Source of the DNA: a virus
Direction: 5' to 3' (one strand)
DNA length: 64,000 nucleotides
Virus record (IMG/VR): IMGVR_UViG_3300034071_003115
Span: 1-64,000 of that record
Each line of letters opens with the position of its first letter. Positions within the stretch are counted from its first letter, which is position 1. Below, one piece after another: positions 45,107 through 61,150 of this stretch. Below the pieces are notes generated by a model. It saw only the letters and a program-made list of their open reading frames with translations, did not search any database and was not told the origin of the DNA. Made by a program: the position numbers and the translations under genes.

Positions 45107-45427
45107 ATGGTGAAGCACGTGAACCCGATCGAATGGAAGTTCGTGTATGAGCATCGCTCGACGCTGACGGAGCGCGAGAATCGCACTAGGATGGAAGCAG
45201 AATCCGATCGTGTATCGGATAGGATCGTGAAGGCTATCGAAGCGATTCGGAAGGATCGTCCATCGTCGTGGATCGACGAACTCGATACCCGCGCATTCTT
45301 CATTCTGAAGGACGCGCTCGATCCGATCGGATACGAAGTGTTGCGTCAGGATGAGGACGGCGCGTGGATCGTACGCGAACGATGGAATACTGGAACGGAC
45401 TGGAACGCACGACTGGTCATCGTCTGA
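45107..45427 (+). CDS. hypothetical protein (cassette A1)
   Basis: RBS GGGAGA after leader hairpin. Confidence 0.65.
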   Translation: MVKHVNPIEWKFVYEHRSTLTERENRTRMEAESDRVSDRIVKAIEAIRKDRPSSWIDELDTRAFFILKDALDPIGYEVLRQDEDGAWIVRERWNTGTDWNARLVIV

Positions 45428-45683
45428 TCGGCCTCCCCCCGTTCACCGCAGGCGCGGTGGGCGGGGGGAAGTTCTTTCGCAACCCCCCGGGTGCTGCTGT
45501 TCTATCTCTAACTGGCTGACTATAAGTAAATAACATAACAACATAAGTTCGACAGGCTCGCCTCCGGCGAGTACGACGCCGCTAAAAGAACGCGAATCAA
45601 CATCTAGGAGATGATGGAGCAGCCGCGGACGCGCGGTGTGATGAATGCGACATCACAATGGTCTAGCAGAAAGGTGGCTTGGA

Positions 45684-45995
45684 ATGATCAAGACAATCGG
45701 CGAAGCGATCGAAGCGCTTCGCAAGGTGGTAGCAGAAGCGCAAGACATCTTCGCGGAAACGGAGAATCTTGTCGCGAAAGCAGAAGCGATTCTTTCGCTC
45801 GCAACGATCACGGGAAGCGCTGGTGATGCGATCAAGGCAAGCGAGAATGTTGGCGCTAGTAGAATGGCGTACCTTCGCGCTCGTCTCGAATTGGAGAAGC
45901 AGCGATTCTACCTTTCGCAATTGGAGAAGGTAGCAGCCGAGAAGGGTAACGACTGGGAAGGCAACAAGGGAATCCAAATCCAGTCGATTCAGTAA
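45684..45995 (+). CDS. coiled-coil protein (cassette A2)
   Basis: RBS AAGGTGG; MIKTIGEAIEALRK... Confidence 0.6.
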   Translation: MIKTIGEAIEALRKVVAEAQDIFAETENLVAKAEAILSLATITGSAGDAIKASENVGASRMAYLRARLELEKQRFYLSQLEKVAAEKGNDWEGNKGIQIQSIQ

Positions 45996-46230
45996 GGACT
46001 TCCCCCTCACCGCGGACGCGCGGTGAGGGGGATGGTTCTGTCGCGGCCCCCCGTGCTGCTGTTAGATGTGTAACCCACAAGAGATATATAAGTAACAATA
46101 TATAAGTAATAAGTTCGATAGACACGCCTCCGGCGCGTACTAGCTGAGAAGAAATACCGCGCCGTATCAATAGGGGATGATGTGCCTAGCCCCGATAGCA
46201 AGGGCGCTGCAGCAATAGGGGGATACGCAA

Positions 46231-46461
46231 ATGGGCAAGCGGATCAACCGCAAGCAAGCGATAGACCGCATCAAGGAGCGTCTACCGTTTGTTTCGCACA
46301 CGGGAAATTTCCGCGGCGAATTGATCGGTACGCAATACATGGTGTATTCGTACCGCGTATGCATCGCGGATTTTACCAATGGCGCGTGGAGCATTGACCC
46401 CACGCGATGGAGCGCGACAACATCGCGCCATCAAGGCATCGTGCGCCGCGCGATCGCCTAA
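46231..46461 (+). CDS. small conserved phage protein (cassette A3)
   Basis: YMVYSY..IA, WSATTSRHQ. Confidence 0.7.
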   Translation: MGKRINRKQAIDRIKERLPFVSHTGNFRGELIGTQYMVYSYRVCIADFTNGAWSIDPTRWSATTSRHQGIVRRAIA

Positions 46462-46734
46462 CGGATCGGCCCGCGTATAAAGGCGGGCGAGGCAAGGGAG
46501 CAGGGGGACGAGAGAGCCCCCTGCTCGCTCCTTTATTTTTTTCTCTTTTTTTATCCAGAGCCAAGGTGGCGGTCACACTCTCTTGTGGAATATAAGTAAC
46601 TAAATATAAGTAATAAGTTCCACGGCCTCGCCTCCGGCGAGTACGACACCAGAAAAAGAATCTCTCCGTATGACTCGGCGATGATGGTGTCAGCGGCGCT
46701 GCTGTGGCGTCGCATCAGTACGGGAGGGAACGGT

Positions 46735-47076
46735 ATGGAATCGCTATTGGCACTGATCGCCACGCTAGGCGGCGTGACGGTACGCGCGCGCGGAATGCGC
46801 GCAGTGAATCCTGCACGCGGGTACGCAGTAGGGTCGACTGATCGCACTGCGATCCTGCTGCCGCTCGACACCACGGAACGCGCACTACGCACTGCACTAT
46901 TGGAATGCGCAGTGCAGTACGGTACGCGTCACGCAGGCGCGTGGGTCGAGGATGGGATGATTCACGTTGACCCCACCACGATCATCAGCAGCAGGCGCGC
47001 TGCGCTAGGCACTGCGAAGGCGAATCGTCAGCGTGCGATCTACGGATTCAAGGAACGCGAAACGATCTACGTCTAG
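46735..47076 (+). CDS. small phage protein, possibly SAM-lyase-like fold (cassette A4)
   Basis: GAWVEDG.IHVD...A.......RQRAIY. Confidence 0.55.
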   Translation: MESLLALIATLGGVTVRARGMRAVNPARGYAVGSTDRTAILLPLDTTERALRTALLECAVQYGTRHAGAWVEDGMIHVDPTTIISSRRAALGTAKANRQRAIYGFKERETIYV

Positions 47077-47333
47077 CAGGCATCCCCCCAGCCGCAAGGT
47101 CCCGCGGCTGGGGGGATTGCTCTATCGCGGCCCCCTCCATCCTGCTGTTAGATGTGTAATCTCCATGTGCAATATAAGTAACATAATTCATATCACGTTC
47201 GATGGGCCCGCCTCCGGCGGACACAGGTCGAGAAAAAGAATCTCGATGTACATCCGTGCGATGCTGGTGGTACCGCCGACGGGTGGGGCGAGCAATGCGA
47301 GCTCGCAATTGGTTAGTGAACAGGAGGTTCAAC

Positions 47334-47606
47334 ATGCCAAAGGAGTTGAGGTCATTCATGATCCTCGTCTCAAAGGTCGTTGAGGGCGAGATCGCCGTCA
47401 TCGCAGAGACCGAGGAGAAGGCACGCGAGATCGCAATGGATCTTGCGTCGAATCACCCAGACACTTACCTCGACAACGATACGGATGTCGTTGTCGACTC
47501 AGTCCGCAGCGCCAGCGATCACGATCTCGAGTATCTGATCTTCAACGGCGCCAACGGATCTGAGTGGGACGCAAAGAGGCTGATCAAGATGTCCTTCGAG
47601 AAGTAG
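47334..47606 (+). CDS. small acidic protein with V.AETEEKA motif (cassette A5)
   Basis: RBS AGGAGGT. Confidence 0.65.
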   Translation: MPKELRSFMILVSKVVEGEIAVIAETEEKAREIAMDLASNHPDTYLDNDTDVVVDSVRSASDHDLEYLIFNGANGSEWDAKRLIKMSFEK

Positions 47607-47883
47607 TACCGAGAACCCCAGTCGGCAGCGGACGCGCTGCTGGCTGGGGTTTCTTTTTGCCCTGCACAAAGCTCTACCTCGGCCCCCTGGGGCCTGTAGT
47701 TCTATATCTAACACACAATATGAATATAAATAAGAGCAATAAGTTCCATGGCCACGCCTCCGGCGTGTACGACCTCGGCCTAAAAATCTCAATCAACAGA
47801 AACGCGATGATGGGGTCAGCGGACGCGGTGCGGCATGAGCCGTTGCGACACCGAAGTGCGCGGTAGCAAAAAGGAGGACAGAG

Positions 47884-48285
47884 ATGTCCGAGAAGGAACG
47901 CTCGCAACAGCGCGCAAACCTCTTCGCTGAAGTCGTCAGTGAAGTCGTGAATCCAGTCGTGGCTCAAGAGGAGCGCACGCACGAATGGGAGTTCATCGCC
48001 AGAGACGCTGACGATGACTACGATGATGTTGCGTGGTCGTTGCACAATGGTTCACGAGAAATCATTGAGCAGTACGCAGCAACAAAGAGCACTGGCGCGG
48101 ATGCGATGTACGTCCTTGAGAAGCCTCACAAGTTTCTTGATGGCGTTGCGGAGTTCATTGAGAACATGGACGTCGCAACTTCAGAGAAGGAGTACATGAC
48201 TCGCAAGTTTGGTTATTGGCATTGTATGGAGTGCGACGCTGAAGCGTACTCTATTGAGAGCGGCGACGAGGAACCCTGCGAGTAG
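47884..48285 (+). CDS. acidic hypothetical protein (cassette A6)
   Basis: RBS AAGGAGG. Confidence 0.65.
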   Translation: MSEKERSQQRANLFAEVVSEVVNPVVAQEERTHEWEFIARDADDDYDDVAWSLHNGSREIIEQYAATKSTGADAMYVLEKPHKFLDGVAEFIENMDVATSEKEYMTRKFGYWHCMECDAEAYSIESGDEEPCE

Positions 48286-48363
48286 GAATCTCGTCGCAGT
48301 TCAATCAAACGAGGTGCGAGCGAATGCGACGCTCGCACCTCACCATCAGTGAAGGAGAGAATC

Positions 48364-48672
48364 ATGTTCAAGTCAGACGGAAAGAAGATCAAACTCAACG
48401 CGTTCGGAACGGATTACACGGCGGAGATTCTTGTTGATCAGTATCACAACGGCAACACTGCCGTTGTGTTGTACACAGAGCACGAGCCACTGTGCTCTCT
48501 CTCTGTGAACACTGAGAAGATTCTTCCAACGGGTCACTTCTACTTGAAGGAGTGGTCAGAGAATCTTGAGATCGCTCACAATCAGAGCGTTCAGGAGATC
48601 ATCAAGGAGTGTGGTCAGCATGAGGACTACGCTTCTGGATACGTCGTGGCACGCTGCTTCACGATCTCCTAA
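48364..48672 (+). CDS. DUF4313-like protein (cassette A6)
   Basis: Y.NGNTAV.L...EP...LSVN, KEWSEN, SGYV. Confidence 0.6.
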   Translation: MFKSDGKKIKLNAFGTDYTAEILVDQYHNGNTAVVLYTEHEPLCSLSVNTEKILPTGHFYLKEWSENLEIAHNQSVQEIIKECGQHEDYASGYVVARCFTIS

Positions 48673-48933
48673 AGTCTAGCCCCCCTTCCACCCAGCGCGG
48701 TGGGAGGGGGGTTAGTTATACCGCGGCACCCTGTGCTGCTGTTAGATCTCTAACCCCCTCACAATGTAAATAAATAAATAAGAGGAATAAGTTCCACGGG
48801 CGCGCCTCCGGCGCGTACGGCCCGAGAAAAAAAATCTCACGGAGTAGAAGCCTGATGATGGGTGCAGCGGCGGCACTACGGCGAAGGAGCCGATGTGATG
48901 GTGAAGCGTCGCAGGTAGCATTGGAGGTTCACG

Positions 48934-50399: not shown

Positions 50400-50620
50400 C
50401 GGAGTCCTCCCCCCGTTCACCGCAAGCGCGGTGGGCGGGGGGAGGCTCTAACGCAGCCCCCTGGGTGCTGCTGTTAGATGTCTAACACACAAGCGATAAG
50501 TAAATAACATAAATAATATAAACGGGGAATAATATAAGTTCCAACATTACGGGCCGCGGCCCGTAATGCCCCCACAAATGTTATGCCCCCGCAAGTCCCA
50601 GACCTGCGGGGGCTAGTTAG

Positions 50621-50830
50621 TTAGCGGCGGTCCCAGAGGTACTGCGAGCCGTCCCAATCATCCTCGTACATCATCGCGTCCTTGTCGCCAAGCAGCGCAG
50701 CAGCCTCGGCGCGAAGTTCATCGCGGAACTCCTTACCGCAATAGTCGTGGTACCAGACTCCGCTGAACTCGTCCGTCCACTTGCCATCCTCGCTCGTGAT
50801 TGTTTCGCTGCACCAATCGCACCTGAACAT
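50621..50830 (-). CDS. small Zn-binding protein
   Basis: CDWC...HDYC; RBS AAGGAGG. Confidence 0.65.
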   Translation of the reverse strand: MFRCDWCSETITSEDGKWTDEFSGVWYHDYCGKEFRDELRAEAAALLGDKDAMMYEDDWDGSQYLWDRR

Positions 50831-51009
50831 TTCTGCCTCCTTATTGCTACCACCCCAAGCGGGGTACCCCCATCATAGAGTCGCCATTTCCAATCCGTCA
50901 AGCCCCTAGTTTCGGGAGAGTCTCGTGCGCCGCGGCGCACGAGAGCCGAACAAAAGAAAACGCCAGCGGGGGTAGCATCCCGCTGGCGTGTTGCTAACGA
51001 TTGTGCGCG

Positions 51010-51294
51010 CTATCCGCGATAGTAGTCCATCTTGTCAATGAACTCATCATCAACATTGACCGAGTTGTATGAAACCGAGAATCCCTTCTTCTCCATCGCC
51101 GCGATGAAGAGAGGCGCATCGCAATCTTCTTCTAGGTAGACGCTACCATTGCGCTCATACGAGCAGTTGCTCACCTTGTCCGCGATACCAAGCGTGCGAA
51201 GCATTGCCTTCTCCGCTACGAGGTATCCGTGCCCTGGCGTGGATACGAACCGCGTCACATAGGTTGCTTGGATACCGAAGTCCCCTCCAAACAT
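51010..51294 (-). CDS. small conserved phage protein (TPGHG / YLEEDCD motif)
   Basis: STPGHGYL, VYLEEDCDAPLF. Confidence 0.7.
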   Translation of the reverse strand: MFGGDFGIQATYVTRFVSTPGHGYLVAEKAMLRTLGIADKVSNCSYERNGSVYLEEDCDAPLFIAAMEKKGFSVSYNSVNVDDEFIDKMDYYRG

Positions 51295-51428
51295 TATTGC
51301 CTCCTTATTGCTACCCTCACGGCAACTGCCGCAAGGCAATACTACGCGAACTCCCGCTTGCTTGTCAAGCGTTCTATTCCACCCTGCCGCGGCAGGGTGG
51401 AGCCGACCCTAATACCTGCCGCTTTCGT

Positions 51429-51758
51429 TTACGCTTCCGCGTTCGCCGTCTGCTCCTGCTCGTTGCGAATCGCTTCGTCCGTGTGATGGCTCGCGATTTC
51501 CGTCCAGTTCACCGACGAGAGGCAACCGCCCACGAAGTCCGCAACTAGTCCCGCGGGCTGCTCGCCGATGAACTCCTCAACCTGCTCGCGAATCCATCGC
51601 CCCATCTCATAGGCGGAGAAGTTTGGGTCGCTGTCGTTCGTTTCTGCAAAGTAGCGCGCCTGCTCACCAACCTCAAAGAGGTCAAGCAGCCCCTCCTCAA
51701 TCCAAAGATTGGTGACCCAAGTTTCCCAGTTCGTCCAGCCATTGTAGCCTTCGCTCAT
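51429..51758 (-). CDS. small conserved phage protein (YNGWTNWETW motif)
   Basis: GYNGWTNWETWVTNLWI...VNWTEIA. Confidence 0.75.
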   Translation of the reverse strand: MSEGYNGWTNWETWVTNLWIEEGLLDLFEVGEQARYFAETNDSDPNFSAYEMGRWIREQVEEFIGEQPAGLVADFVGGCLSSVNWTEIASHHTDEAIRNEQEQTANAEA

Positions 51759-51925
51759 TTTTGCCTCCTTGCTACCTAGCGGGAAGTCCCCGCCACTGAA
51801 TACTAAGCGAACTCCTAGCCGCTCGTCAAGTGTTCTATTCCAACCTGCCGCGGCAGGTTGGAGCTCCACAAAGAAACAACGGCGGGGATTTCTCCCCGCC
51901 GTTGTCGTTCCCGATTTTGTGCGCG

Positions 51926-52333
51926 CTACTTGATTGGGTAGTTGCCCAGTTCTAGCAGCGTCTTGATTTCCGCAGCCTGTTCATCGGTGAGGGCGAGAGT
52001 CTTGCCGTCCTCGTCCTCTGCGGTGAGTACGCAGTTGCCATAGATGTTGTCCGCGTACCCTCCCAGGATTTCGTTGCGGAGTGATGTCGCCGCATGATTG
52101 CGGAGGACTGGCTCGTTGTAGAGACCTTCCTCGTCGCACCAGAGCACGACGCTAGTTGCGCCATACTTGCCAGAAACCGCAACCTCCGTCATGTCCCACT
52201 CGCCTACTCGGTAGAGTTCGGTGAGCGTGTTGCCGTCATCGTTGAAGTCCACGACCTCAACCCAGTTGAACAGCGCGGGCGTTGAAGCACCAACTTCAAG
52301 CGCACCGACTCCGAACTTGATTGCCTTACCCAT
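51926..52333 (-). CDS. DUF3846-like protein
   Basis: LWCDEEGL....N..AT, IYGNCVL...DG....LT. Confidence 0.7.
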   Translation of the reverse strand: MGKAIKFGVGALEVGASTPALFNWVEVVDFNDDGNTLTELYRVGEWDMTEVAVSGKYGATSVVLWCDEEGLYNEPVLRNHAATSLRNEILGGYADNIYGNCVLTAEDEDGKTLALTDEQAAEIKTLLELGNYPIK

Positions 52334-52449
52334 TTTCCGCCTCCTTGCTACTCATCGGGAAGCCCCGACACCAGAATCTTACGCGATAAGTTCCAGACCT
52401 GTCAAGGGTTCAAATCCAAGTCGCCGCGGCGACTTGGAGCCGAACAAAA

Positions 52450-52690
52450 TGATGAGGGTCTGACTGGCACCACACCAACCAGACCCTCATCGGCATTTCG
52501 CTGCCTTTGACGCTTATCCTCTTGCGAGGAGAGGCTTCACCTCTCGGCTACCTCTTGCGAACGGCATAGGTGTCGGTTAGGCACCCCCACCGCTCGTCCT
52601 TATCGTCTCGGGTAGTTCGTCTACAACTACCAACCAGCCGCAGCCCCATAAGCCCGCCACCTTCACAGCGGCACCAGAGCGGCTCGTGAG
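52450..52690 (-). ncRNA. candidate structured small RNA occupying its own cassette
   Basis: Promoter TTGACG-N17-TAGAAT and terminator-like hairpin flank about 240 nt with several hairpins; only a 33-codon ORF seen. Confidence 0.5.
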
Positions 52691-52807
52691 GTGATTCTAA
52701 ACGAACATCTTCCAGCCGTCAAGAGTTCTAATCACACGGGCCGCGGCCCGTGTGAGGTGAACAAAAAAGGCGAGGTTTCCCTCGCCTTTCTTGACCAGAC
52801 CCCCCGA

Positions 52808-53089
52808 TTACTTGACTTCGTAGACCTCGCCGCCAAAGCGAACCGCCGTGATTGCGTCAAGCGCAACCGAACGATACGCCTTCTTGGTGATGTCGTAGAC
52901 GAAGATGAGGTCTTTCGCCGCCGCGTCATACGCAGCCTCACCGCCTTTGAGATGCTTCTTGACTCCGAGTCGCGCCGTCATCTTGCGAACCTCGCCCGTC
53001 GTGCGCTTCACGAAGTCCACGCCGAAGATTGCGCCGTTGCTGTTGCGAATCATTTCGGCTGCCTCTGCCAACTTGATTGCCTTGCTCAT
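52808..53089 (-). CDS. WYL-like/SH3-fold small protein
   Basis: FGVDFVKRTTGEVRKM, VYDI.KKAYRSV. Confidence 0.65.
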   Translation of the reverse strand: MSKAIKLAEAAEMIRNSNGAIFGVDFVKRTTGEVRKMTARLGVKKHLKGGEAAYDAAAKDLIFVYDITKKAYRSVALDAITAVRFGGEVYEVK

Positions 53090-53237
53090 TTCTGCCTCCT
53101 TGCTACTCTGCCCCAATCGGGGTACTCCGATTCTAAGCGAACACCTAGCCAGCCGTCAAGGGTTCTATTCCAAGTGGCCGCCGCCACTTGGAGCCGAACA
53201 AAAATGCCGCCCGAAGGCGGCATCTTTGCTTTCTGGA

Positions 53238-53576
53238 CTACTCGGCTTGGTGGAGCGCGATGATCTGAGCCATCTCGCGCTCGGCTGCCCACTCCTCTGA
53301 GAAGGCAACGAAGTCAATGAATCCATCGTTGCGCCAATGGACGACGATGTTGCCGAACCTGTCGTAAGTCCCATCAAGTTCAGTTGAGATCATCTCATCT
53401 GGCTGAGCGAAACCTTCCAACATATCGCCGTAGATTTCAGCGAACTTTAGATCGTATCCGTCAAGACGAGGAGCGACCTTTGGATCAACGAACCAATCGC
53501 CCCTGCAACTGCCCTGTGAGCATTGAAACTTTGTGAAGTCGCCCTTTGTGAGTGAGACTGCCAGAGCCTTGAACAT
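53238..53576 (-). CDS. hypothetical protein
   Basis: RBS GAGGAGG. Confidence 0.6.
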   Translation of the reverse strand: MFKALAVSLTKGDFTKFQCSQGSCRGDWFVDPKVAPRLDGYDLKFAEIYGDMLEGFAQPDEMISTELDGTYDRFGNIVVHWRNDGFIDFVAFSEEWAAEREMAQIIALHQAE

Positions 53577-53689
53577 TTGAGCCTCCTCTGCTACCGCCCC
53601 AAGTGGGGTGAACCCATTGTAATCAAACTTCTCGCAAGGTGTCAAGAGGTTCTAGTGGAACAGGCCGCCGCCTGTTCCACCTGAACAAA

Positions 53690-53918
53690 ATACAAGACCC
53701 TCGGAGCCGTCGCCCCGAGGGTCTTGCTTCGGATTTGTTGTCTAGGGACTAATCACTTTCCCTAGACTCCTTTTCCTTCCGCTCCGCCGATCCATTGGCA
53801 CCTAGCGGTCATCGTCCTTTGCGTCTCTATACCCGCATTTTTTGGCTGCGGCATCTGCTCGCTCGTCCAGAGTCTCACCTAGTCGGTGTCGCTTCATCTA
53901 GAATCGCTTCCGACAAGT
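53690..53918 (-). ncRNA. candidate small RNA occupying its own cassette
   Basis: Promoter TTGACA-N18-GAGAAT, terminator hairpin; only a 31-codon ORF without the usual AGGAGG. Confidence 0.4.
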
Positions 53919-54007
53919 GGATTCTCCCACACCCGAAACAGACCTGTCAAGCCCCTATTTCAGTTCCATTCCAATCACCCGCCGGTGATTGGAGCCGAAC
54001 TATTTAT

Positions 54008-54349
54008 TTAGTTTGCTGGTGCTTCTGAGGAAGCGATTGCGTCGCTCAACGAGTAGAAGACAGGGTGTTCGTATCCGTTGCCTAGTTCTGATTTGTGAAT
54101 CAACTCAAACCACGAGTTATTTATCCACTCAAATCGCTCAATGTCTTTCTCCGCCTCTGCGAGTTTCTCGTCGGAGTCTATGCCGACATCTTCCAAGTCC
54201 CTCGTCGTGCGAAGATGGACAAACTGCCCATCATCTCGCTTGTACCTAATGTTCATCTCGCCACACCTGAACACCAGATAGTCGCCGAGGTCTTTGATCG
54301 CCTCGTCGTCTTCGTGATAGGTGTAGAAGGCTGCGTCTTCCCTGCTCAT
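54008..54349 (-). CDS. hypothetical protein
   Basis: Coupled to 54346..54570; WINNSWFE. Confidence 0.6.
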   Translation of the reverse strand: MSREDAAFYTYHEDDEAIKDLGDYLVFRCGEMNIRYKRDDGQFVHLRTTRDLEDVGIDSDEKLAEAEKDIERFEWINNSWFELIHKSELGNGYEHPVFYSLSDAIASSEAPAN

Positions 54350-54570
54350 ACACAACCCAGAACGGAGAATCCGTCTGCCGCGATTCCTTCCAGAATCGGT
54401 TCGGCATAGCGTGGCTCAACGACAAGAGCCTGACCCCAATAGGTCGCCTCCGAGTCCACCCTATCGCGCAGCCACGAGCGAGCCTCTGCTGTGAGTGGGG
54501 TGATGAGGGTAATCGTTCCCTCGCTTACGAACGAGAAGTCCGCGAAGTCGGACTTATCTCCCTTTCCCAT
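54346..54570 (-). CDS. small conserved phage protein
   Basis: GTI..ITPLT.EA..WL, VVEPRY...I..G...DG. Confidence 0.7.
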   Translation of the reverse strand: MGKGDKSDFADFSFVSEGTITLITPLTAEARSWLRDRVDSEATYWGQALVVEPRYAEPILEGIAADGFSVLGCV

Positions 54571-54762
54571 TTCTTGCCTCCTCTTTCTGCGGCACTACTT
54601 CGCCGCAAGACAAGGGTACAACAGCGACCACTAGGTCGTCAAGAGGTTCTAGTCAAACGGGCCGCGGCCCGTTTGAGGCGAACAAAAAAGAGGGATCAAG
54701 TTGGCTGCGATCAACTTGATCCCTCTGTTGGGGCGTAGGGGAGGCTCTATCCTACGCCGTAG

Positions 54763-55029
54763 TCATAGTGCCGCGGCTTGTGGCTTGCGGCAGTCGTATC
54801 CTAGCAGGCAACTGAACGGCTCGTGATCAACGGGATCAATCGCCCACTCAAGGCAAGTCCCACAAGATTCACCGCACCAGTTTACTTCGTCCCAGTCAAA
54901 GACAGGGTGAAGATTATTGCCCTCGTTATCCTTCGTGTCTTCGCTGTCAAGCGTATCGCCGAAGCGTGCCTTCGCGCAGGCTAGGCAATGAACGGAAGCG
55001 TCAAACTGCCAAGCGATCGGTGTTGACAT
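54763..55029 (-). CDS. small Zn-binding protein
   Basis: HCLAC, CGTC; RBS AAGGAGG. Confidence 0.65.
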   Translation of the reverse strand: MSTPIAWQFDASVHCLACAKARFGDTLDSEDTKDNEGNNLHPVFDWDEVNWCGESCGTCLEWAIDPVDHEPFSCLLGYDCRKPQAAAL

Positions 55030-55150
55030 ACATTCCTCCTTATTCGCAGCGTCGGTACTTCCGACAATCGGATTGTCCCATACCTCGGGCTGTCCGTCAA
55101 ATGTTCCAGCCCAAGCACCCGCGGGTGCTTGGGGGCGAACTATTTATTGC

Positions 55151-55384
55151 TCAATACACGCCAGTCCCGCCGCAGCCGCACGCTCCGTCTTGGCACATCA
55201 CGCCCTCGTCAAGCAACATTGCGCAGCCGTACTTATCTGATCGGTGCTCCTCGCACTTCACGCAGTATCGGGAGGGCAGCCCAGAGGAGTTGTTGTCCGC
55301 CCAATACGCAAACGGCTCCTCACAGAAATCACAGGATACTACTCCCTGCGGTTCGCCGACTGGAATCTCAAAGTGGTCGCTCAT
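55151..55384 (-). CDS. small Cys-rich protein
   Basis: CDFC, CVKC, CQDGACGCGG. Confidence 0.6.
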   Translation of the reverse strand: MSDHFEIPVGEPQGVVSCDFCEEPFAYWADNNSSGLPSRYCVKCEEHRSDKYGCAMLLDEGVMCQDGACGCGGTGVY

Positions 55385-55626
55385 TACAGCGCACCATAGC
55401 AGTCATCGCAGAGATTACGAACTTCATCATAGGCGTATTCTGCGCCGTTCCAGCCATAGGAGAACTTTCGCCCCTTGCCCTCAAATGGGCAACGCTTATC
55501 AAGTCGCAGCACTTCCTCGCCCTCGCACTCCTGAACGAGCGGGTGGTCGTGCGTTTCACACTCGCATTGGTCGTAGTAGCAATCTCCGTTGCCACACATC
55601 GTCATTGAGCCTTGTAGGTACGCCAT
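55384..55626 (-). CDS. small Cys-rich protein
   Basis: RBS AAGGAGG; multiple Cys. Confidence 0.6.
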   Translation of the reverse strand: MAYLQGSMTMCGNGDCYYDQCECETHDHPLVQECEGEEVLRLDKRCPFEGKGRKFSYGWNGAEYAYDEVRNLCDDCYGAL

Positions 55627-55745
55627 TGTTGCCTCCTTGCTCGCAGCACCCCAAGCGGGGTAGCCCTATTGTAAATCCACTTGCTTCTATCCGTCAAGAG
55701 GTTCTATCCCAGATGGCCGCGGCCATCTGGGGGAGAACTATTTAT

Positions 55746-55946
55746 TTACTTCCAGTCGCTTGGGATTTCACGCCAAGTCAATCCCCCGTTATCGCAGTCT
55801 GCCGAGTAGATGTCGCACTCTTGACACCACACCACATAGCAGTCCTCTAAATGCTTGTCGCAGTCAGACCAAAGCCAATGCTCTTCCCGCCTATCCATCG
55901 GGCAGTCGCAGGGCTTTCGTTTAGATGTGGGGAATAGGCGGCTCAC
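55746..55946 (-). CDS. small Cys-rich protein
   Basis: Coupled; CDC, CQEC. Confidence 0.5.
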   Translation of the reverse strand: MSRLFPTSKRKPCDCPMDRREEHWLWSDCDKHLEDCYVVWCQECDIYSADCDNGGLTWREIPSDWK

Positions 55947-56392
55947 AATACCTCACACCCTTTCAGGTCAGCGCACTTCTCCAAGAACGCCTGCCACTCT
56001 CGGATAAGACCAACCCACGAAGTCGCCTCCTCGCTTGGGAACGCCTTCGTGTGGTCGTCCATAAACGGATTGTTTGCGATTATGGCAATCATTTCGTTTT
56101 TGATTTGCTCATCGCTCATAGACGCGATTTTCTCGGAGAGTGCGCGGCACTCATAGTCCTTGATGACCTCGCCGCTATTATCAAGTAGATTCTCGTTCAC
56201 CTCGTCAAAGCCAATCGCATCGTGGAACTCACGCAACATCGGCATACCCCAGATGTTCAGACGGAAGTAGAGCGTATCGGGAGCCTTCTCGTCATACGAG
56301 CCGTCCTCGTTTACCCACATTGAGCGGTGCTTCTTTGCGTGTTCAGCCGCAGCCTTTCGGTCTGGTAGCAGCGAGTAGATGTCGTATCCCAT
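55943..56392 (-). CDS. conserved phage protein (MGYD / YFRLNIWG motif)
   Basis: RBS AAGGAGG. Confidence 0.7.
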   Translation of the reverse strand: MGYDIYSLLPDRKAAAEHAKKHRSMWVNEDGSYDEKAPDTLYFRLNIWGMPMLREFHDAIGFDEVNENLLDNSGEVIKDYECRALSEKIASMSDEQIKNEMIAIIANNPFMDDHTKAFPSEEATSWVGLIREWQAFLEKCADLKGCEVL

Positions 56393-56617
56393 TTCCAGCC
56401 TCCTTTATTACAAACCCCAAGCGGGGCAACACCATTGTAAGCAGATTTGCCGTCAGCCGTCAAGGGGTTCTAACCCAAATGGCCGCGGCCATTTGGGGCT
56501 GAACAAAAAACAAGCCCCCCGAAGGGGGCTTGTTTTTCTTGGGCTACTTTCTTACTTCGCTAACGATTGCGTATGTAAACGAAGCGAGCAGAAGAAGAAA
56601 GCCCCAAAACAACTCAA

Positions 56618-57583
56618 TCATCGGGAAAGCGCGAGGACTGCCTCGCGCTTTGTCTTCGCTGCGAAACCTGTGTCTAGCATTACGCTAGAAGCACGAGCGT
56701 CCGAAGCAGAAGAGCGTACCCCGCCGCGATACGAAACGCCATAGTCCAGATACTCGGCGATGGCGTTGTATACGCCCCACTTCGTATCGCGCAAACCTTC
56801 TAGATTCTCCGCGTTATTGAGAATCGCGATTGTTGCCTTCGCTCGCTCCGACATTACTTCCTTCCCACGCTTCTCCGACTCCGACAGCGGGAAGATTCTC
56901 GTGATGACGCGGAATGCCTCATCGCGATCCATCTTCTCCGCGATCATACGCGAGCCGATGACCGAAAACTCCTCAACCGCGCTTGCGGCAAGTCCGAGTG
57001 CGCGCTTCGCCTCTGCGACTTTCTCCTCAATCTTCGCGGTGTGGCGAAGTGTGAACGACATCTTCGCGCTGCCCAACGCTGCGTTGAGCGTGTTCATACA
57101 AACAACGCGGATTGGCGTAATCATCGCTTTGAGTGGGAACAAGCCGTTGTGCCCATTGGCAATCACAAGGTAGGTGTTGGTATCACCATTGTCGCCCTTG
57201 ATCTTGATCCTCTCTGGAATCTCCAACGCGGAGAAGACGATCTGCCCACCTTTGAGTGAACCCGCCGACTCGTAGCGTGCGCCCTCGTCAAGCAACGCGT
57301 CCGCGAACGACATCATCTCGTCGTTCTGGATTGGCGTGTAGCGATCACCGACAACGCCCAAGACCGAGCCATCGGTGCTGCGAACATTTGCGCGCTTGCC
57401 GTTGATCGCGATTTGCTTGCCGTCAAGCGTCGTGAAGATCGGCTGCTGCTTTACTGCCCAATCAAGACCAGCCGCAACGATCATCTCCGCGCTCGTTGTG
57501 AGTCCATTATTGGCAACGCCGAGTTTGTGCCACGGCGCGCCCCTTTCCGCGTTGTATGCCATCGTTTCTACTTCGTGTGCCAT
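56618..57583 (-). CDS. DUF932 (TIGR03299-like phage/plasmid) protein
   Basis: PWHKLG, AGLDW.V, LGVVGDRYTPIQN, ESAGSLKGG, NGHNG, TPIRVVCMNTL, RHT. Confidence 0.88.
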   Translation of the reverse strand: MAHEVETMAYNAERGAPWHKLGVANNGLTTSAEMIVAAGLDWAVKQQPIFTTLDGKQIAINGKRANVRSTDGSVLGVVGDRYTPIQNDEMMSFADALLDEGARYESAGSLKGGQIVFSALEIPERIKIKGDNGDTNTYLVIANGHNGLFPLKAMITPIRVVCMNTLNAALGSAKMSFTLRHTAKIEEKVAEAKRALGLAASAVEEFSVIGSRMIAEKMDRDEAFRVITRIFPLSESEKRGKEVMSERAKATIAILNNAENLEGLRDTKWGVYNAIAEYLDYGVSYRGGVRSSASDARASSVMLDTGFAAKTKREAVLALSR

Positions 57584-57701
57584 TTGCGTCCTCCTTTTTT
57601 CTCAACGGCAACTGCCGCTAGATGGATTGTCGCATACTTCCCGAGATTGCGTCAAGTTCTAGTCCAAAGGGCCGCGGCCCTTTGGAGCCGAACTATTATC
57701 T

Positions 57702-57986
57702 TTATGCGTGTCGGTGCGCTTCTACAAAGTCGCAGTTCGGGATAAAGCACCAGCCTTCATCTCGCGCTTCCGCGTCCGACATAAATGGCGGGTGAAACTC
57801 ACACTCGCAGGGAGCGCAGTCCAAGCAGTAAACCAGATAACCCTCTGGCACACCGCTCTCATACTGATCAAAGTCAAGAACATCAAAGCGCGTGTTTGGC
57901 TCGCCGTTCCACGCACCGATGACTTTCTCATCGGGGTAAACAAGCGGAGCCGAGCAGCGAGTACACGCGTGAAGTTCACCGCTCAT
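57702..57986 (-). CDS. small Zn-binding protein
   Basis: CTRC, YCLDC. Confidence 0.55.
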   Translation of the reverse strand: MSGELHACTRCSAPLVYPDEKVIGAWNGEPNTRFDVLDFDQYESGVPEGYLVYCLDCAPCECEFHPPFMSDAEARDEGWCFIPNCDFVEAHRHA

Positions 57987-58152
57987 CGGTAATCTCCTCC
58001 GCGCTCCAAACAATAATCTCTGGCGTAGTGTCCCAAGGTGCTGGCTCCTCTGCCAACTCAAACGCCTTGCCCTCTGCCTCGCCCTGATCCAAGGCTTCCA
58101 CCTCAAACTCGCGATAGCCAGTGTGTTGTAGAACAACGATCCACTTACTCAT
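57976..58152 (-). CDS. small acidic protein (EVEA..EA motif)
   Basis: Coupled ORF. Confidence 0.55.
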   Translation of the reverse strand: MSKWIVVLQHTGYREFEVEALDQGEAEGKAFELAEEPAPWDTTPEIIVWSAEEITDER

Positions 58153-58462
58153 TGTCGCCCTCCCACTCTGCGCCCTGCTCAATCAAGGAGAAGAATCCAT
58201 CGTTCGGATTCTTGTCTGGGTGTACGCTCGCAACCGCCTGAACGAATCGCAGCGAGCAAGAGTTCTCGTACCACTCCATAATCGTACTCAACATTTCGTT
58301 AGGGTTGGAATCTTTTGCCTCAATGAGCGTCGTGTAGCCATACTCCTTCATCTGCTCCACCTGCGCGTCGTCAAGCAGAACATAGATTTTGTGGCAATCG
58401 TCAAAGCCGATACCCTTTGCGATTTCCACCATCTCCTCAACCTTGTCCCAACTTACTGCCAT
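58145..58462 (-). CDS. conserved phage protein (FDDCHKIY motif)
   Basis: GIGFDDCHKIY, WYENSCSLRFV. Confidence 0.7.
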   Translation of the reverse strand: MAVSWDKVEEMVEIAKGIGFDDCHKIYVLLDDAQVEQMKEYGYTTLIEAKDSNPNEMLSTIMEWYENSCSLRFVQAVASVHPDKNPNDGFFSLIEQGAEWEGDNE

Positions 58463-58624
58463 TTCAGCCTCCTCACTACAACGGCAAGTGCCGTCTAGTG
58501 GATTGTCGCATACCCAAAGCCCAGCCGTCAAGCGTTCTACCCCAAGGAGCCGCCGCTCCTTGGGCAAGAACAAAAACAAACGAGCCGCCCGAAGGCGGCC
58601 CGCTTGATTACTTGATCTCGAAGA

Positions 58625-59170
58625 TCAGACTGGCTGATTCTCTGGCAGCGCAGCCTCTTCCTTCGTAATCTTTCCCGCTCGGATTGCGTCGCGCAGTTCG
58701 ATGCTCTCTTTGTGTGTGATCGCATCGAGATCAGGGTTGTGCTTCTCTGCGTATTTCAGTTCTTTCAGACCCTCATGCTCCATGCGCTCCATAACGCGCT
58801 TGCGCCAAGCACCAGCGGTTTCGTATGAGGCGTTGGTTTCCAGTCCGATGTGCTGCTCCAAGTCTGCTCTGGTAATCATGCGCGGTTCCCACTTGATGTT
58901 TCCGTCGTCTTCATACCCAGAAAACACAACACTCTTGTCGATCCATGCGACCGAGTAAGCGAGCGCCATGCGCTTCTCCCACTCGTCAAGATTCTCTGGC
59001 GTGATCTCGTTGAGCCCAATGCTCATCGTGTGCCAGATAATCGAGTTGGTGATCGGATGAAGGTACTCCTCACCGCGAGTCGTGCCGTCATGGGCGCTGC
59101 TCCTTGTTGCCGTTCGGTAGCAAACATCGTCCGCGTTCTTTACATTTTTTACTGACCAGTTGAGCGGCAT
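58625..59170 (-). CDS. hypothetical protein
   Basis: RBS AAGGAGG; HIGLETN. Confidence 0.7.
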   Translation of the reverse strand: MPLNWSVKNVKNADDVCYRTATRSSAHDGTTRGEEYLHPITNSIIWHTMSIGLNEITPENLDEWEKRMALAYSVAWIDKSVVFSGYEDDGNIKWEPRMITRADLEQHIGLETNASYETAGAWRKRVMERMEHEGLKELKYAEKHNPDLDAITHKESIELRDAIRAGKITKEEAALPENQPV

Positions 59171-59179
59171 ACAGCCTCC

Positions 59180-59407
59180 TTACTTCTTCTTGGTGGCGCG
59201 CTTTGCGCCAGACTCACGAATCGCACGCTCCAATCGCTCGGTGCGCTTATCAGCGTGATGGCTGCTGATGACGAAGAACGCCCAGATCGTTGCTGGCAGC
59301 CAGCCGATCAGCGTGAGTTGGAGAACAAGCGCGATGATTGCCTGAACCCATTTGCCAGCAGCCAGAAACCCAAACGCTGGAAAGAGCAACGCCAATAGGT
59401 ACTTCAT
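59180..59407 (-). CDS. YqaE/Pmp3-family membrane proteolipid
   Basis: YLLALLFP, LIGWLPATIWA. Confidence 0.8.
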   Translation of the reverse strand: MKYLLALLFPAFGFLAAGKWVQAIIALVLQLTLIGWLPATIWAFFVISSHHADKRTERLERAIRESGAKRATKKK

Positions 59408-59601
59408 TTTCTACCTCCTTACTTTCTATCGGGAATCCCCGACCACTTGATTTTCTCACGGGTCATAGCGACCTGTCAAATGGTCTACCCCAGACACCGG
59501 CGGGTGTCTGGGCGCGAACAATAATAAATAAGCCCCGCCATTTCTGGCGAGGCTTATTCACACTCGGGCTAACGCTGTGATTTCATCAGCCCTGTATCTA
59601 A

Positions 59602-60414
59602 TCAGCCCCCGACAACGCCGCCGAAGTGTTTATCACAGAACTTCTCAAACTCGTTCATTGGTACGGCATCATAATCACGCTCGCCGTACTCAATCTCGTC
59701 GTCCTCGCCCTTGTGCCACGCTTCGTCTGGCAAATCATCTGCGTTGTAATCACTTACGCTTACAACCTCTCCGTTCTCGTACACAATCTCACCTGCGAAA
59801 CCCATACCGCCTTCGCAGTATCGGTGAGCGATTGCGAGCGTTGGAAACTGCTTGGCGAGCGCGGCAATCACAGGCTCCGCAGGAGCCCAAGCCGTATCAA
59901 AGTTGTACGAAACGATTCCGTCAATCTTGCTATCGTCATCGCCGCGGTCGCTCCATACTTCACCGCAGTTCCACTTGGAGCCCCAGTTAGAAACATTCCA
60001 GTTGTACCACCAGTCTGGGTGCGATGAGTTCTGCTTGACCTTGTGAATCGGACAGATTGGCGTACCGCCAAACATCAGGGCGGTATCATCTTGGATTGTG
60101 CCGTTGCTTGATTCTTCCTTCACAACTGGAATACCATCAACGCACCACTCGCCCTGCTTTCGCATTACATCTTTGCCGTCGTTATCGGTGTACGAAACGA
60201 TTTCTGGTAGGTCATCTCGCTCAACCCACACCTGCTTACAGCCGCATTGGAAATCGTTCTGACCCTCGTTGATTGCGTAGAACTTGCTATCGGGTGGCGG
60301 CACAATCTTCGCAAAGTCGAAGTCGCCCTCGCTGCCCTTCACAAACTCAACCAACCTTGCGACCTCTGCTTCGTCGCCGCTAATGTCTACTTGGTTCACA
60401 CACCAGTTAGGCAT
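59602..60414 (-). CDS. DUF1281/YubB ferredoxin-like protein
   Basis: MPNWC.N, FDF.KIVP.P, WYNWN..NWGSKW, FDTAWAP, Y.E.GM.FAG. Confidence 0.8.
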   Translation of the reverse strand: MPNWCVNQVDISGDEAEVARLVEFVKGSEGDFDFAKIVPPPDSKFYAINEGQNDFQCGCKQVWVERDDLPEIVSYTDNDGKDVMRKQGEWCVDGIPVVKEESSNGTIQDDTALMFGGTPICPIHKVKQNSSHPDWWYNWNVSNWGSKWNCGEVWSDRGDDDSKIDGIVSYNFDTAWAPAEPVIAALAKQFPTLAIAHRYCEGGMGFAGEIVYENGEVVSVSDYNADDLPDEAWHKGEDDEIEYGERDYDAVPMNEFEKFCDKHFGGVVGG

Positions 60415-60556
60415 CTTTCTTTCCTCCTTGTATCACAGACAGGGAAGCCCCTGCCCCTAGATTGTAAGGCAACTTCTAGCCATCGGTCAAGTTGCCAGCC
60501 AGAGTTCTATCTCAACTGGCGGCGGCCAGTTGAGGGCGAACTAAAATTTTGCGTTT

Positions 60557-60889: not shown

Positions 60890-61150
60890 AACTTCCTCCT
60901 TATGCCTACGGCTAACTGCCGTAGGGGGATTGTAAGCGATCGCTATAACTTGTGTCAAGCCCTCGGGTTCGACCCTCGCTTCTGCGGAAGCTCGGCTACC
61001 CCAAAAAAAACATCTTGTCAAGTCCTCCCCCAAAACGACCCCCGAATAATAACTGAACTTCGGTAGGCCAACTTGACCGCCCTATAACTTCTGTGCCATA
61101 CTCCGCTCACGCCGCACAAATGACGGCGCGCAATAACAAGGAGGTACGCA

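Follow-up and report, generated by a model that had tools for sequence, protein, structure and literature searches.

Genomic Features of the Cassette Array

The window analyzed here is a stretch of 64,000 nucleotides from the 79-kb genome of an uncultured long-tailed phage. The phage's portal protein is only ~25% identical to its best cultured matches. There are 16 self-promoted early genes in the array, with a palindromic element between them. The element is 38 bp in length and consists of GTTC-N3, a 10+4+10 palindrome, and N3-GAAC. All 17 of the fixed-geometry palindromes described earlier between 50538 and 60541 were found, and each is 24 bp with 10/10 Watson-Crick arm pairs. The number expected by chance is ~0.08 per 79 kb (4^-10 per position). 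When the whole 79-kb phage genome was searched, no further palindromes in the same frame were identified. The following features are present.

60929..60958, minus strand: P0, consensus promoter of the first unit (gene0)
60504..60541, minus strand: element 1, class B; palindrome start 60511, arm CTCAACTGGC, center CGCC
59482..59519, minus strand: element 2, class B; palindrome start 59489, arm CCCAGACACC, center CGCC, 3' frame GACC
58534..58571, minus strand: element 3, class B; palindrome start 58541, arm CCCAAGGAGC, center GGCG
57656..57693, minus strand: element 4, class B; palindrome start 57663, arm TCCAAAGGGC, center CGCG
56467..56504, minus strand: element 5, class B; palindrome start 56474, arm CCCAAATGGC, center CGCG
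55701..55738, minus strand: element 6, class B; palindrome start 55708, arm CCCAGATGGC, center CGCG
55103..55140, minus strand: element 7, class B; palindrome start 55110, arm CCCAAGCACC, center CGCG
54646..54683, minus strand: element 8, class B; palindrome start 54653, arm TCAAACGGGC, center CGCG
53963..54000, minus strand: element 9, class B; palindrome start 53970, arm TCCAATCACC, center GGCG
53649..53686, minus strand: element 10, class B; palindrome start 53656, arm TGGAACAGGC, center GGCG
53162..53199, minus strand: element 11, class B; palindrome start 53169, arm TCCAAGTGGC, center GGCG
52725..52762, minus strand: element 12, class B; palindrome start 52732, arm TCACACGGGC, heads a non-coding cassette
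52408..52445, minus strand: element 13, class B; palindrome start 52415, arm TCCAAGTCGC
51832..51869, minus strand: element 14, class B; palindrome start 51839, arm TCCAACCTGC, 5' frame GTGG
51371..51408, minus strand: element 15, class B; palindrome start 51378, arm TCCACCCTGC, 5' frame GGTC
50914..50951, minus strand: element 16, class B; palindrome start 50921, arm TCTCGTGCGC, no GAAC, long-phase spacer
50538..50575, no strand assigned: element 17, terminal; palindrome start 50545, arm CATTACGGGC, no promoter after it
50872..60490, minus strand: sixteen sigma70-type promoters (TTGAC, mostly 18-nt spacer, TAnAAT) just downstream of elements 1-16
44653..48860, plus strand: class-A heads (AT-rich block, GTTC, N6, 6-bp covarying stem, TCC loop, TAC, GATG(A/C)T)
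38341..38931, plus strand: RusA-family Holliday-junction resolvase gene

The exact frame, GTTC-N30-GAAC, is present in 12 of the 17 copies. It had been proposed to be degenerate in a few, and these are the five with palindrome starts at 59489, 51839, 51378, 50921, and 50545. Only the three centers named in the preliminary description occur on the minus strand: CGCG (11 copies), GGCG (four), and CGCC (two). The terminal element 17 is located between the convergent last terminators of the minus- and plus-strand arrays, and its GAAC/GTTC is shared with a class-A head.

Promoters and Terminators

The spacer from GAAC to TTGAC is 0, 2, 3, or 4 nt in 77 copies and 12, 13, or 14 nt in 10, and it is never 5-11 nt. 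These short and long classes are one helical turn apart, and both are found within single cassette families. As described earlier, the element is upstream of the -35 box of its own promoter, to which it is tied by spacing quantised to one helical turn. For example, TTGAC directly abuts the GAAC of element 4, which heads the DUF932 cassette. Long-phase spacers follow element 1 (13 nt), which comes after gene0 without a terminator, and element 9 (12 nt), which heads a non-coding cassette. The distance from the loop start to the -10 box has a mode of 47 nt in class B. In the class-A heads, which possess no -35 box, the distance from the loop start to GATG(A/C)T, a -10-like box, is exactly 47 nt in 17/17.

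The array promoters are already near consensus and need no activator, which is a point against a promoter role for the element. P0 is equally good despite having no class-B palindrome; upstream of it are only a small covarying 5-bp hairpin and GAAC. Promoters with an 18-nt spacer tend to be sensitive to supercoiling.

The element was previously thought to lie mostly after the preceding terminator and outside the mRNA. This holds for the 11 of 17 copies here, and 62 of 96 in the family, that have a strong terminator upstream. The remaining copies (34/96 in the family) are preceded by an AT-rich 9-mer directly after the stop codon and may be part of read-through transcripts. Whether or not there is a terminator, the element always adjoins an AT-rich tract (84% AT). 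None of the 17 copies is terminator-like, as no T run follows the palindrome. A palindrome closes every one of the 17 transcription units, and a boundary or 3'-end role fits as well as a promoter role.

Arm Pairing in Related Phages

The same element was found in six related viral contigs. Family counts are given for six genomes, namely the five relatives whose arrays were fetched and the present genome. They contain 96 copies, of which 94 are perfect, and 59 different arm sequences occur among them. Watson-Crick pairs make up 99.9% of the arm helix; a single G-T was counted among 880 pairs. All 10 arm pairs covary (272 double-change cells, compared to 66.6 +/- 11 in shuffles). In contrast, the neighboring intrinsic terminators have 124 G-U in 1209 pairs (~10%), and only 4 of 78 stems are perfect. 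The near absence of G-T from the arms indicates a constraint on both DNA strands and not on RNA. Selection on intrastrand pairing of the DNA, as suggested in the preliminary description, is supported by these results.

With promoter context (GAAC-N0-6-TTGAC) as the only search criterion, all array copies had 10/10 pairs and chance matches had 0-6. The same context at 117 unrelated IMG/VR loci gave pairing scores of 0-7. Folded as DNA hairpins, the palindromes have energies of -11 to -15 kcal/mol, with a z-score of -3.3 to -6.6. An arm length of 10, a center of 4, and the frame are fixed in the 96 copies across lineages with complete turnover of arm sequence. The arms had been described as different yet always complementary. 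The pairing was upheld, but the variability is partial. The consensus is YCCAAnnnGC, in which positions 1-5 and 9-10 are semi-conserved and only 6-8 are free. Because semi-conservation extends to 7 of the 10 arm positions and to the flanks on both sides, the statement that the element is not an operator sequence was too strong.

The 4-nt center can also be inverted to its reverse complement. This was observed in 3 of 17 orthologous pairs with G001, a relative of 97% identity: element 2 (CGCC to GGCG) and elements 9 and 11 (both GGCG here). It was found in six further related pairs as well. Element 13 differs in G001 by a paired arm change, C:G to T:A. Template switching at hairpins is known to leave loop inversion and arm homogenization as its signature (PMC8794818, PMC8604942). 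Center flips between close relatives are such a signature and, as judged from sequence comparison, show that the hairpin forms in vivo.

Cassette Exchange

A search of relatives for cassette shuffling with breakpoints at the element had been suggested as a check. Shuffling was found, and the breakpoints are at the element's edges. Cassette order differs in all five lineages, although the cassettes themselves stay intact. In G001, the non-coding cassette of element 12 is replaced, and the replacement ends exactly at the module edges, with the left breakpoint right after TTGACG. A rearranged palindrome stays with either its upstream or its downstream cargo. Every complete array has n+1 palindromes per n cassettes. 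No tyrosine or serine recombinase was identified in the four genomes searched, and a search for a Y1 transposase found none. The RusA gene is kept in all four genomes tested, and RusA is a candidate for a cruciform-cutting enzyme here.

Possible Roles of the Element

It appears about an even chance that the palindrome is a DNA-level, cruciform-capable upstream promoter/insulator element in a terminator/promoter junction resembling the PeSLs, and that it is also a crossover site. PeSLs are the promoter-early stem-loops of T4-type myoviruses (Arbiol et al. 2010, PMC2839356; Comeau et al. 2014, PMC4122927). The element forms the core of a ~110-bp composite junction module separating self-contained early-gene cassettes. 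This module contains, in order, an intrinsic terminator or AT-rich 9-mer, GTTC-N3, the perfect 10+4+10 palindrome, nTA-GAAC, and a sigma70-type promoter (TTGAC, 18-nt spacer, TAnAAT). Pairing of the palindrome is maintained in the DNA itself, so that each strand would be able to fold on itself as a hairpin or cruciform, and the palindrome keeps to a single face of the helix at a distance of ~57 bp from the transcription start, on the upstream side. Its most likely role is that of a structure-read upstream promoter element and of a fence between units. Negative supercoiling would extrude it from double-stranded DNA, or a putative reader, either a dyad-symmetric or a junction-specific protein, would dock on it. 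In either form it could modulate RNA polymerase at the adjacent and probably supercoil-sensitive promoter, and it could insulate the unit from its neighbor. The recurrence of the module at every boundary also makes it the substrate on which related phages swap cassettes, as with PeSLs. For cruciform extrusion in unconstrained cellular DNA, a 24-bp palindrome with a GC-rich center lies close to the lower limit, which is a point against this reading. The ~10-bp-period pattern (conserved outer arm, free middle, conserved center) counts against a cruciform, as it is equally expected from a protein on one face of B-DNA.

It is rather unlikely that the element is primarily a recombination site and that its promoter position is secondary. 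The extruded cruciform would then be a four-way junction, RusA or host enzymes would cut the symmetric YCC at the arm foot, and the boundaries would be hot spots. The shuffling of intact cassettes, the replacement ending at module edges, the travel of the palindrome with cargo on either side, and the n+1 count all agree with this. RusA, encoded in 4/4 genomes tested, preferentially cuts a crossover point 5' of CC (PMC1636454). C is present at each of positions 2 and 3 in 45-48 of the 59 distinct arms. However, RusA is common in phages and not specific to the element, and the genome would fragment if 17 cruciforms were cut. The breakpoints are in the conserved flanks and not in the dyad, as expected from plain homologous or microhomology recombination between repeated modules. 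Such a site also has no need for 10.5-bp-quantised -35 spacing or for the identical 47-nt distance in class A. An ordinary B-DNA operator is quite unlikely. A dimeric host or phage regulator would read YCCAA, the GC-CGCG-GC center, and TTGGR on one face, and the unread middle positions would be complementary only through replication template switching that homogenizes the arms. In its favor are the conservation period of ~10 bp (positions 1-5 and 9-14 conserved, 6-8 free) and the helical phasing with the promoter, which is typical of activator or repressor sites, and the loop flips indicate that template switching is active here. However, the same arrays contain terminator stems of comparable length that have not been homogenized, and with only 4/78 of them perfect, homogenization alone is too weak to produce 94/96 perfect palindromes. 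The center also varies, with free flipping in most lineages, and no HTH, HU, or sigma reader candidate was found among the protein families tested.

There is little probability that the element acts at the RNA level in read-through transcripts, where it would back up termination, protect the 3' end as a hairpin, or mark a processing site. The 34 of 96 copies without an upstream terminator would be transcribed, the hairpin is stable, and its stem could be extended by GTTC/GAAC across a 3x3 internal loop. Against this are the scarcity of G-U compared to real RNA hairpins nearby, the lack of a U tract, the position of about two thirds of copies downstream of a strong terminator, and the lack of an Rfam match to the element. 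The helical phasing to the next promoter would also be left unexplained. We give very little credence to a functionless by-product, in which replication errors create and maintain a perfect palindrome that hitch-hikes with a mobile terminator/promoter module. The mobility of this module is clear, and template switching is able to create and maintain perfect stems (PMC8794818). However, the constant arm, center, and frame despite total arm turnover, the quantised promoter spacing, and the presence of the element at every boundary in six genomes count against it.

Comparison with Known Systems

Like REP/RAYT elements (PMC3733652), the palindromes are extragenic and are found at the 3' ends of transcription units, and a tetranucleotide tag is conserved at their foot. 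For REPs, roles in supercoiling, in termination, and in the stability of mRNA have been proposed (PMC3733652). REPs are imperfect and near-identical within a genome, carry a GTAG or CGTC tag, and are linked to a Y1 transposase, whereas the arms here vary, the tag reads GTTC on either strand, and there is no Y1 transposase. Integron attC sites are also inverted repeats that conserve their structure while varying in sequence, and they too are located at cassette boundaries, n+1 of them per n cassettes. That analogy, made in the preliminary description, fails. attC sites are imperfect, with extrahelical bases and variable length, and are recombined by the integron tyrosine integrase, and their cassettes are promoter-less. 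Here the palindromes are perfect, bulge-free, and of fixed length, there is no integrase, and each cassette has a promoter and usually its own terminator.

The early promoters of the coliphage N4 virion RNA polymerase are a precedent for the proposed role: they are small GC-rich hairpins, extruded from double-stranded DNA at sub-physiological supercoiling, whose stems mix conserved and free-but-paired positions (PMC4496689). The palindromes resemble them as small GC-rich inverted repeats with mixed stems at early promoters, and the class-A bottom strand has the same C-GNA-G triloop motif. In N4, however, a stem of 5-7 bp with a 3-nt loop is centered at -11 and is itself the promoter for the phage polymerase. 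Here a 10-bp stem with a 4-nt center is at ~-57, and a complete host-type promoter lies downstream of it. A search for a phage RNA polymerase gave no hit, and its control was uninformative.

The architecture had not been recognized from a described system, but a relative exists in the PeSL terminator/promoter cassettes of T4-type phages (PMC2839356, PMC4122927). The palindrome here is separate from the terminator, a perfect 24-bp palindrome between it and the promoter, whereas the PeSL stem-loop is the terminator. It also has a fixed geometry, keeps phase with the -35 box, and contains no G-U pairs, and the phage lineage is unrelated to the T4-type. In both systems, a plastic region with small ORFan genes has a composite of a stem-loop and a near-consensus sigma70 early promoter repeated between the genes. 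Both also have a middle-promoter version (PmSL there, class A here), and in both the motifs delimit the insertions, deletions, and replacements that distinguish close relatives.

The phage and its relatives

The contig is viral and totals 79,109 bp, of which the window is the first 64 kb. Genes for a portal, a protease and a major head protein were identified, as were those for two large proteins, one tape-measure-like (2794 aa) and one of the tail (1667 aa). The contig further encodes a terminase, ThyX, two ParB-N proteins, a PD-(D/E)XK nuclease, a DnaC-like loader, SSB, MazG and a RusA resolvase. No close cultured phage and no DNA match were found. The portal has its best matches in SPO1-like Bacillus phages, at ~25% identity.

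A pattern scan of IMG/VR identified five further contigs that carry the element, G001 to G005. G001 is 97% identical to this genome, and G002 and G005 are complete at ~85 kb each. A sixth relative, L055, was recovered by a second IMG/VR scan that used promoter context only. A scan of genomes from 185,579 species for host or prophage copies returned two chance matches, both non-palindromic. No paper describing the element was found.

Another repeat was noticed beyond the minus-strand array. The heptamer AGTTATT occurs in 10 copies on the minus strand of window positions 60860-63700, against ~5 expected (both strands, whole window). Eight of these copies, all within 63173-63699, surround a gene for tRNA-Ile(TAT) at 63330-63405. 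The cluster could mark an origin region or be a further regulatory repeat.

Geometry and pairing of the palindromes

The preliminary description reported 17 palindromes of 10+4+10 bp, and scanning for perfect inverted repeats gave just this number, from 50,545 to 60,534. None was found in the same frame elsewhere in the 79 kb, and the chance expectation of such palindromes is about 0.08. The GTTC...GAAC frame, said to be degenerate in a few copies, is exact (GTTC-N30-GAAC) in 12/17 and degenerate in 5/17. The three centres reported, the centre being the 4-nt middle of the palindrome, were likewise recovered on the minus strand as CGCG (n=11), GGCG (n=4) and CGCC (n=2). The layout described therein holds, but the arms are not free to take any sequence. 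They follow the consensus YCCAAnnnGC, in which only positions 6-8 are unconstrained.

On the minus strand, all copies share one layout. First comes either an intrinsic terminator and its T tract or, directly after a stop codon, an AT-rich 9-mer; this is followed by GTTC-N3, the palindrome, nTA-GAAC, a short spacer, TTGAC, a spacer (18 nt in most) and TAnAAT. After the -10 come a short 5'-UTR hairpin, AAGGAGG and ATG.

Altogether, 96 elements were analysed in the arrays of six genomes, and 94 of them are perfect, 2 have a single mismatch and 59 distinct arms are represented. The frame is free of indels, and pattern scans sufficed to recover the family. When 88 distinct copies are aligned without gaps, pairing in the arm helix reaches 99.9%; when the partner is slid by one column, pairing falls to 45-49%. 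Changes on both sides were found at all ten arm pairs, with 272 double-change cells versus 66.6 +/- 11 in shuffles. In a control set of 116 unrelated IMG/VR loci that share the promoter context, 0-7 of 10 putative arm pairs match, and 10/10 was reached solely in the relative L055. Selection for arms that differ within one genome is unsupported, as 2 identical pairs were counted versus 1.7 expected from independent columns and 4.7 from permutation.

Coupling to promoters and a second class of hairpin head

A match to TTGAC / TAnAAT is present in 16/16 promoters of the array. GAAC and TTGAC are separated by 0, 2, 3 or 4 nt in 77 copies and by 12, 13 or 14 nt in another 10, and a spacer of 5-11 nt was never seen. 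The two spacer classes are thus one helical turn apart. Both occur inside single cassette families (in family I the spacers are 13, 14, 13 and 0 nt, with unrelated sequences), which indicates that spacer length and not ancestry is conserved. Measured from the first base of the centre, the -10 hexamer is most often 47 nt away (36 copies), followed by 48 nt (20 copies). The palindrome is at about -57, ~57 bp upstream of the start site.

Other hairpins, and one further palindrome, were noticed in the window, including a second head type, class A, on the plus strand.

44500-50540, plus strand: second array of ~8 cassettes, convergent on the minus-strand (class-B) array
60929-61010, minus strand: P0, the promoter of the first unit
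50860-60470, minus strand: at the 5' UTR start of nearly every cassette, just past the -10, a 4-6 bp hairpin with a 4-nt loop
48445-48468, plus strand: perfect 10+4+10 palindrome, CACAACGGCA-ACAC-TGCCGTTGTG

Class-A heads are present in this genome, G001 and G004. Each consists, in order, of a conserved box CTGCTGTT..AT.T.TAAC, a ~40-nt AT-rich block, GTTC-N6, a 6-bp covarying stem with a TCC loop, TAC and GATG(A/C)T. The last motif lies exactly 47 nt after the start of the loop in 17/17 copies. A -35 box is lacking, and an A-rich tract is in its place. The bottom strand of the stem reads C-GGA-G, a GNA triloop like that of N4. Class-A heads probably serve as middle promoters dependent on a phage factor. 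A GTTC-tagged hairpin at an equal distance from the -10 in two promoter classes is the main reason that a transcription-coupled DNA element was ranked first.

P0 lacks the 24-bp palindrome. Its hairpin has a stem of 5 bp, GCTTC-CGCA-GAAGC, with GAAC after it, and in G002 the hairpin is GCGTC-CGCA-GACGC. It is a third, smaller hairpin head, and because this small hairpin itself covaries, P0 is weakened as a palindrome-free control. The 5'-UTR hairpins (CCCCGCTTGGGG, CGGCAGTTGCCG and CGGGGCTTCCCG are examples) have stems that covary between cassettes and could possibly serve as mRNA-stabilising stem-loops. The plus-strand palindrome is within the coding region of a class-A cassette, is without the GTTC/GAAC frame and may have arisen by chance.

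Cassettes and their exchange

The segments between palindromes cluster into 14 cargo families, of which family A is heterogeneous. Their order varies among lineages.

Order of cassettes, by cargo family, in five lineages
This genome: I B J C K A D A E F A L G H M N
G002: I B J K A C E A D F A L G H M
G005: I B K A C B A D F A J E L H. H G N
G004: A C D E B A H F L G N
G003: I C J B K A A E A D F G A M

A search of relatives for cassette shuffling at the element had been proposed, and it bore the idea out: order differs in the five lineages, with breakpoints at the edges of a module. One cassette has been replaced between this genome and G001, and identity ends right after the TTGACG of element 12 and restarts at TTTTGTTC before element 13. 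Alignments of cassette junctions are consistent with this. An arm can stay with the cargo downstream of it, as in the DUF932 cassette, which retains nCCAAAGGGC behind four different neighbours. It can also stay with the cargo upstream, as in the E and G cassettes, which retain their tail palindrome before different neighbours. Strict linkage of the palindrome to either the downstream promoter or the upstream terminator does not hold, since both linkages occur. Breakpoints therefore fall at either edge of a ~50-bp conserved module.

A promoter-less palindrome closes every array that could be followed to its end. Here, the two arrays converge, and the terminal copy, fused to a class-A head, lies between their last terminators. 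Counted from P0, which has no class-B element, each of the 17 units ends in a palindrome, and a role as a fence or boundary fits as well as a promoter role.

The contents of the cassettes were also explored.

50621-60414, minus strand: cassette proteins, including DUF932, an Api92-like DUF1281_C domain, DUF3846, DUF7249, a Pmp3 proteolipid and several small Cys-rich proteins
52446-52700 and 53690-53940, minus strand: two cassettes (families L and E) with complete head, promoter and terminator, and without a ribosome-binding site or ORF

Several of these protein families are typical of the leading regions of conjugative plasmids and of anti-restriction islands, which suggests that the cassette genes could be an anti-defence or host-takeover set. 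The cargo of both ORF-less cassettes is conserved in all five related lineages and has no Rfam match. Given this conservation, they look like structured early non-coding RNAs.

Inversion of the centre

Between this genome and G001, the centre is the reverse complement (GGCG <-> CGCC) in 3/17 orthologous elements, and a one-base difference was found at four further centres. Only one element has altered arms, with a paired C:G changed to T:A. Six more centre flips were found between other related pairs. Two independent substitutions at the outer positions of the centre are very unlikely in three elements at 3% divergence. When a polymerase switches template at a hairpin, the footprint recognised is loop inversion together with arm homogenisation (PMC8794818, PMC8604942). 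The flips are evidence that the hairpin forms in vivo.

In the sub-lineage of G003 and L055, the centre is mostly TCCG (7/15 copies in G003, where the flipped CGGA never occurs). This centre resembles the TCC loop of class A, and it seems that in this sub-lineage the loop is read strand-specifically. In the other lineages the centre flips freely.

DNA or RNA

The intrinsic terminators directly upstream of the palindromes, folded as RNA, served as an internal control. They contain 124 G-U among 1209 pairs (~10%), and 4/78 are perfect; the palindromes contain one G-T in 880 arm pairs. Where one strand forms a G-U pair, the opposite strand has an A-C mismatch. The near-absence of G-T thus indicates that the palindromes are constrained on both strands, and this points to a structure in DNA, either a cruciform or one hairpin per strand, and not to the transcript. 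Folding of the 38-mers as single-stranded DNA gave energies of -11 to -15 kcal/mol (z-scores -3.3 to -6.6).

A terminator scan made no terminator-like call among the 17 copies, and no T run follows any of them. Without a U tract and without tolerated G-U, the palindromes are not intrinsic (Rho-independent) terminators. It had also been stated that they are mostly outside mRNA. This fits 62/96 family copies, about two thirds, which are directly behind a strong terminator with a T tract; the remainder may be transcribed by read-through. An Rfam search gave sub-threshold chance matches only and no known RNA family.

Alternative explanations

Against an RNA element are the single wobble pair in 880, beside neighbouring terminators with about a tenth, the lack of a T run after any copy, the position of most copies behind strong terminators and the lack of an Rfam match. 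The equal distance of a GTTC-tagged hairpin from the -10 in two promoter classes is also hard to reconcile with it, and the explanation is very unlikely. The same spacing is difficult for a pure recombination site driven by a resolvase, which is unlikely. One candidate enzyme was identified.

38341-38931, plus strand: RusA-family Holliday-junction resolvase gene, between the DnaC-like loader and SSB genes

A RusA-family resolvase is encoded in 4/4 genomes (this genome, G001, G002 and G005). RusA prefers to cleave 5' of CC at the crossover point (PMC1636454). Most arms start with YCC, so the foot of an extruded element would offer RusA a favoured site on either side, in symmetric positions. Many phages encode RusA, and the match is thus a lead and not evidence. 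Tyrosine and serine recombinases (PF00589, PF00239) are absent from the same four genomes, with positive controls, as is the Y1 transposase (PF01797). Endonuclease VII, HU (PF00216) and sigma region 2 (PF04542) gave no match in the four. T7-like RNA polymerase (PF00940) gave none in this genome, the only one searched, and this negative is weak because its control did not score either. The 2794-aa protein has a tape-measure match only.

Two further explanations involve template switching, which could contribute to the perfection of the arms. An operator read as B-DNA and kept symmetric in this way would account for the semi-conserved half-sites YCCAA..TTGGR and the GC centre. However, the middle positions are also perfectly symmetric, and the operator of a dimeric regulator needs no symmetry at positions that it does not read. 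Such an operator is held to be unlikely. That the palindromes are a functionless by-product is hardly credible. Terminator stems of similar length are not homogenised, and for this reason selection appears to be an additional requirement.

Proposed role of the element

The reading ranked first, which stands at about an even chance, is that the palindrome is a DNA element capable of forming a cruciform or hairpin, held on a fixed face of the helix ~57 bp upstream of the start site. It would act as a structure-read promoter element, a fence and a crossover substrate. This draws on the observed geometry, covariation, phasing, centre flips and shuffling. Reading of the structure would involve contacts to sequence in two places, the foot (GTTC, YCCAA) and the tip (GC and the centre). 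The element would act on the adjacent promoter and also fence the tandem units, and its repetition would provide a substrate for crossover in cassette exchange. An AT-rich flank adjoins the element; this flank, the 18-nt promoter spacers and the precedent of N4 all fit a supercoil-dependent switch. For the N4 hairpin, extrusion has been observed at -0.035 superhelical density in the presence of Mg2+ (PMC4496689). Indirect indications of a cruciform-forming regulatory palindrome are the pairing constraint on both strands, the centre flips, the hairpin energies and the AT-rich flank. We infer extrusion in duplex DNA, a reader protein and a direction of effect on the promoter.

A more specific possibility, put forward tentatively and thought rather unlikely, is that the elements are true cruciform switches on promoters of the host polymerase, and also topological fences and programmed exchange points cut by RusA. 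Negative supercoiling generated by gyrase or transcription would drive extrusion. The 24 bp would leave the helix axis, bringing the AT tract and GTTC next to GAAC and so altering the geometry of the DNA upstream of the promoter, and RusA would cut the four-way junctions at the symmetric YCC feet, with exchange at every cassette boundary. If true, cruciform switches would carry the structure-read promoter principle of N4 over to sigma70 promoters and join it with a cassette system that needs no recombinase.

Few functional DNA cruciforms have been described in bacteria and phages, and many of these are disputed. For the element described here, natural variation is the equivalent of a large compensatory-mutation experiment, with 96 copies, 59 arms, near-zero wobble, fixed geometry, helical phase and loop inversions. 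If the palindrome is read by its structure, it would be a compact, portable and sequence-independent promoter/insulator part, and a second natural case, after N4, of supercoil-gated transcription signals. The phage keeps an exchangeable plug-in library of small early genes without a site-specific recombinase.

Comparison with known systems

The analogy with integron attC made in the preliminary description failed. There is no integron tyrosine integrase with the array, nor a serine recombinase. The attC site is an imperfect palindrome of variable length with extrahelical bases, and its cassettes are promoter-less, whereas here 94/96 palindromes are perfect, the 10+4+10 geometry is fixed and each cassette has a promoter. 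REP/RAYT elements were also rejected, as the tag here is GTTC and not GTAG/CGTC, there are 59 distinct arms versus near-identical copies, and a Y1 transposase is lacking.

The N4 hairpin promoter has a 5-7 bp stem and a 3-nt loop centred at -11 and is used by a phage RNA polymerase. In contrast, class B has a 10-bp stem and a 4-nt centre at ~-57. The likeness is in the principle of hairpin promoters, and the defining features of N4 are not shared.

The promoter-early stem-loops (PeSLs) of T4-type myoviruses are closer. As in PeSLs, a near-consensus sigma70 early promoter and an upstream terminator stem-loop are repeated between small genes, and shuffling, replacement, insertion and deletion between related phages are bounded by the motif (PMC2839356, PMC4122927). 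In PeSLs, the terminator stem-loop is the sole structured part, whereas here there is an additional perfect palindrome that is separate from the terminator. The lineage is also unrelated to T4, unlike the hosts of PeSLs. The system is thus PeSL-like by architecture and evolutionary behaviour, in an unrelated uncultured lineage, and the palindrome is an addition that PeSLs lack. The PeSL idea is thereby extended beyond the T4-type phages.
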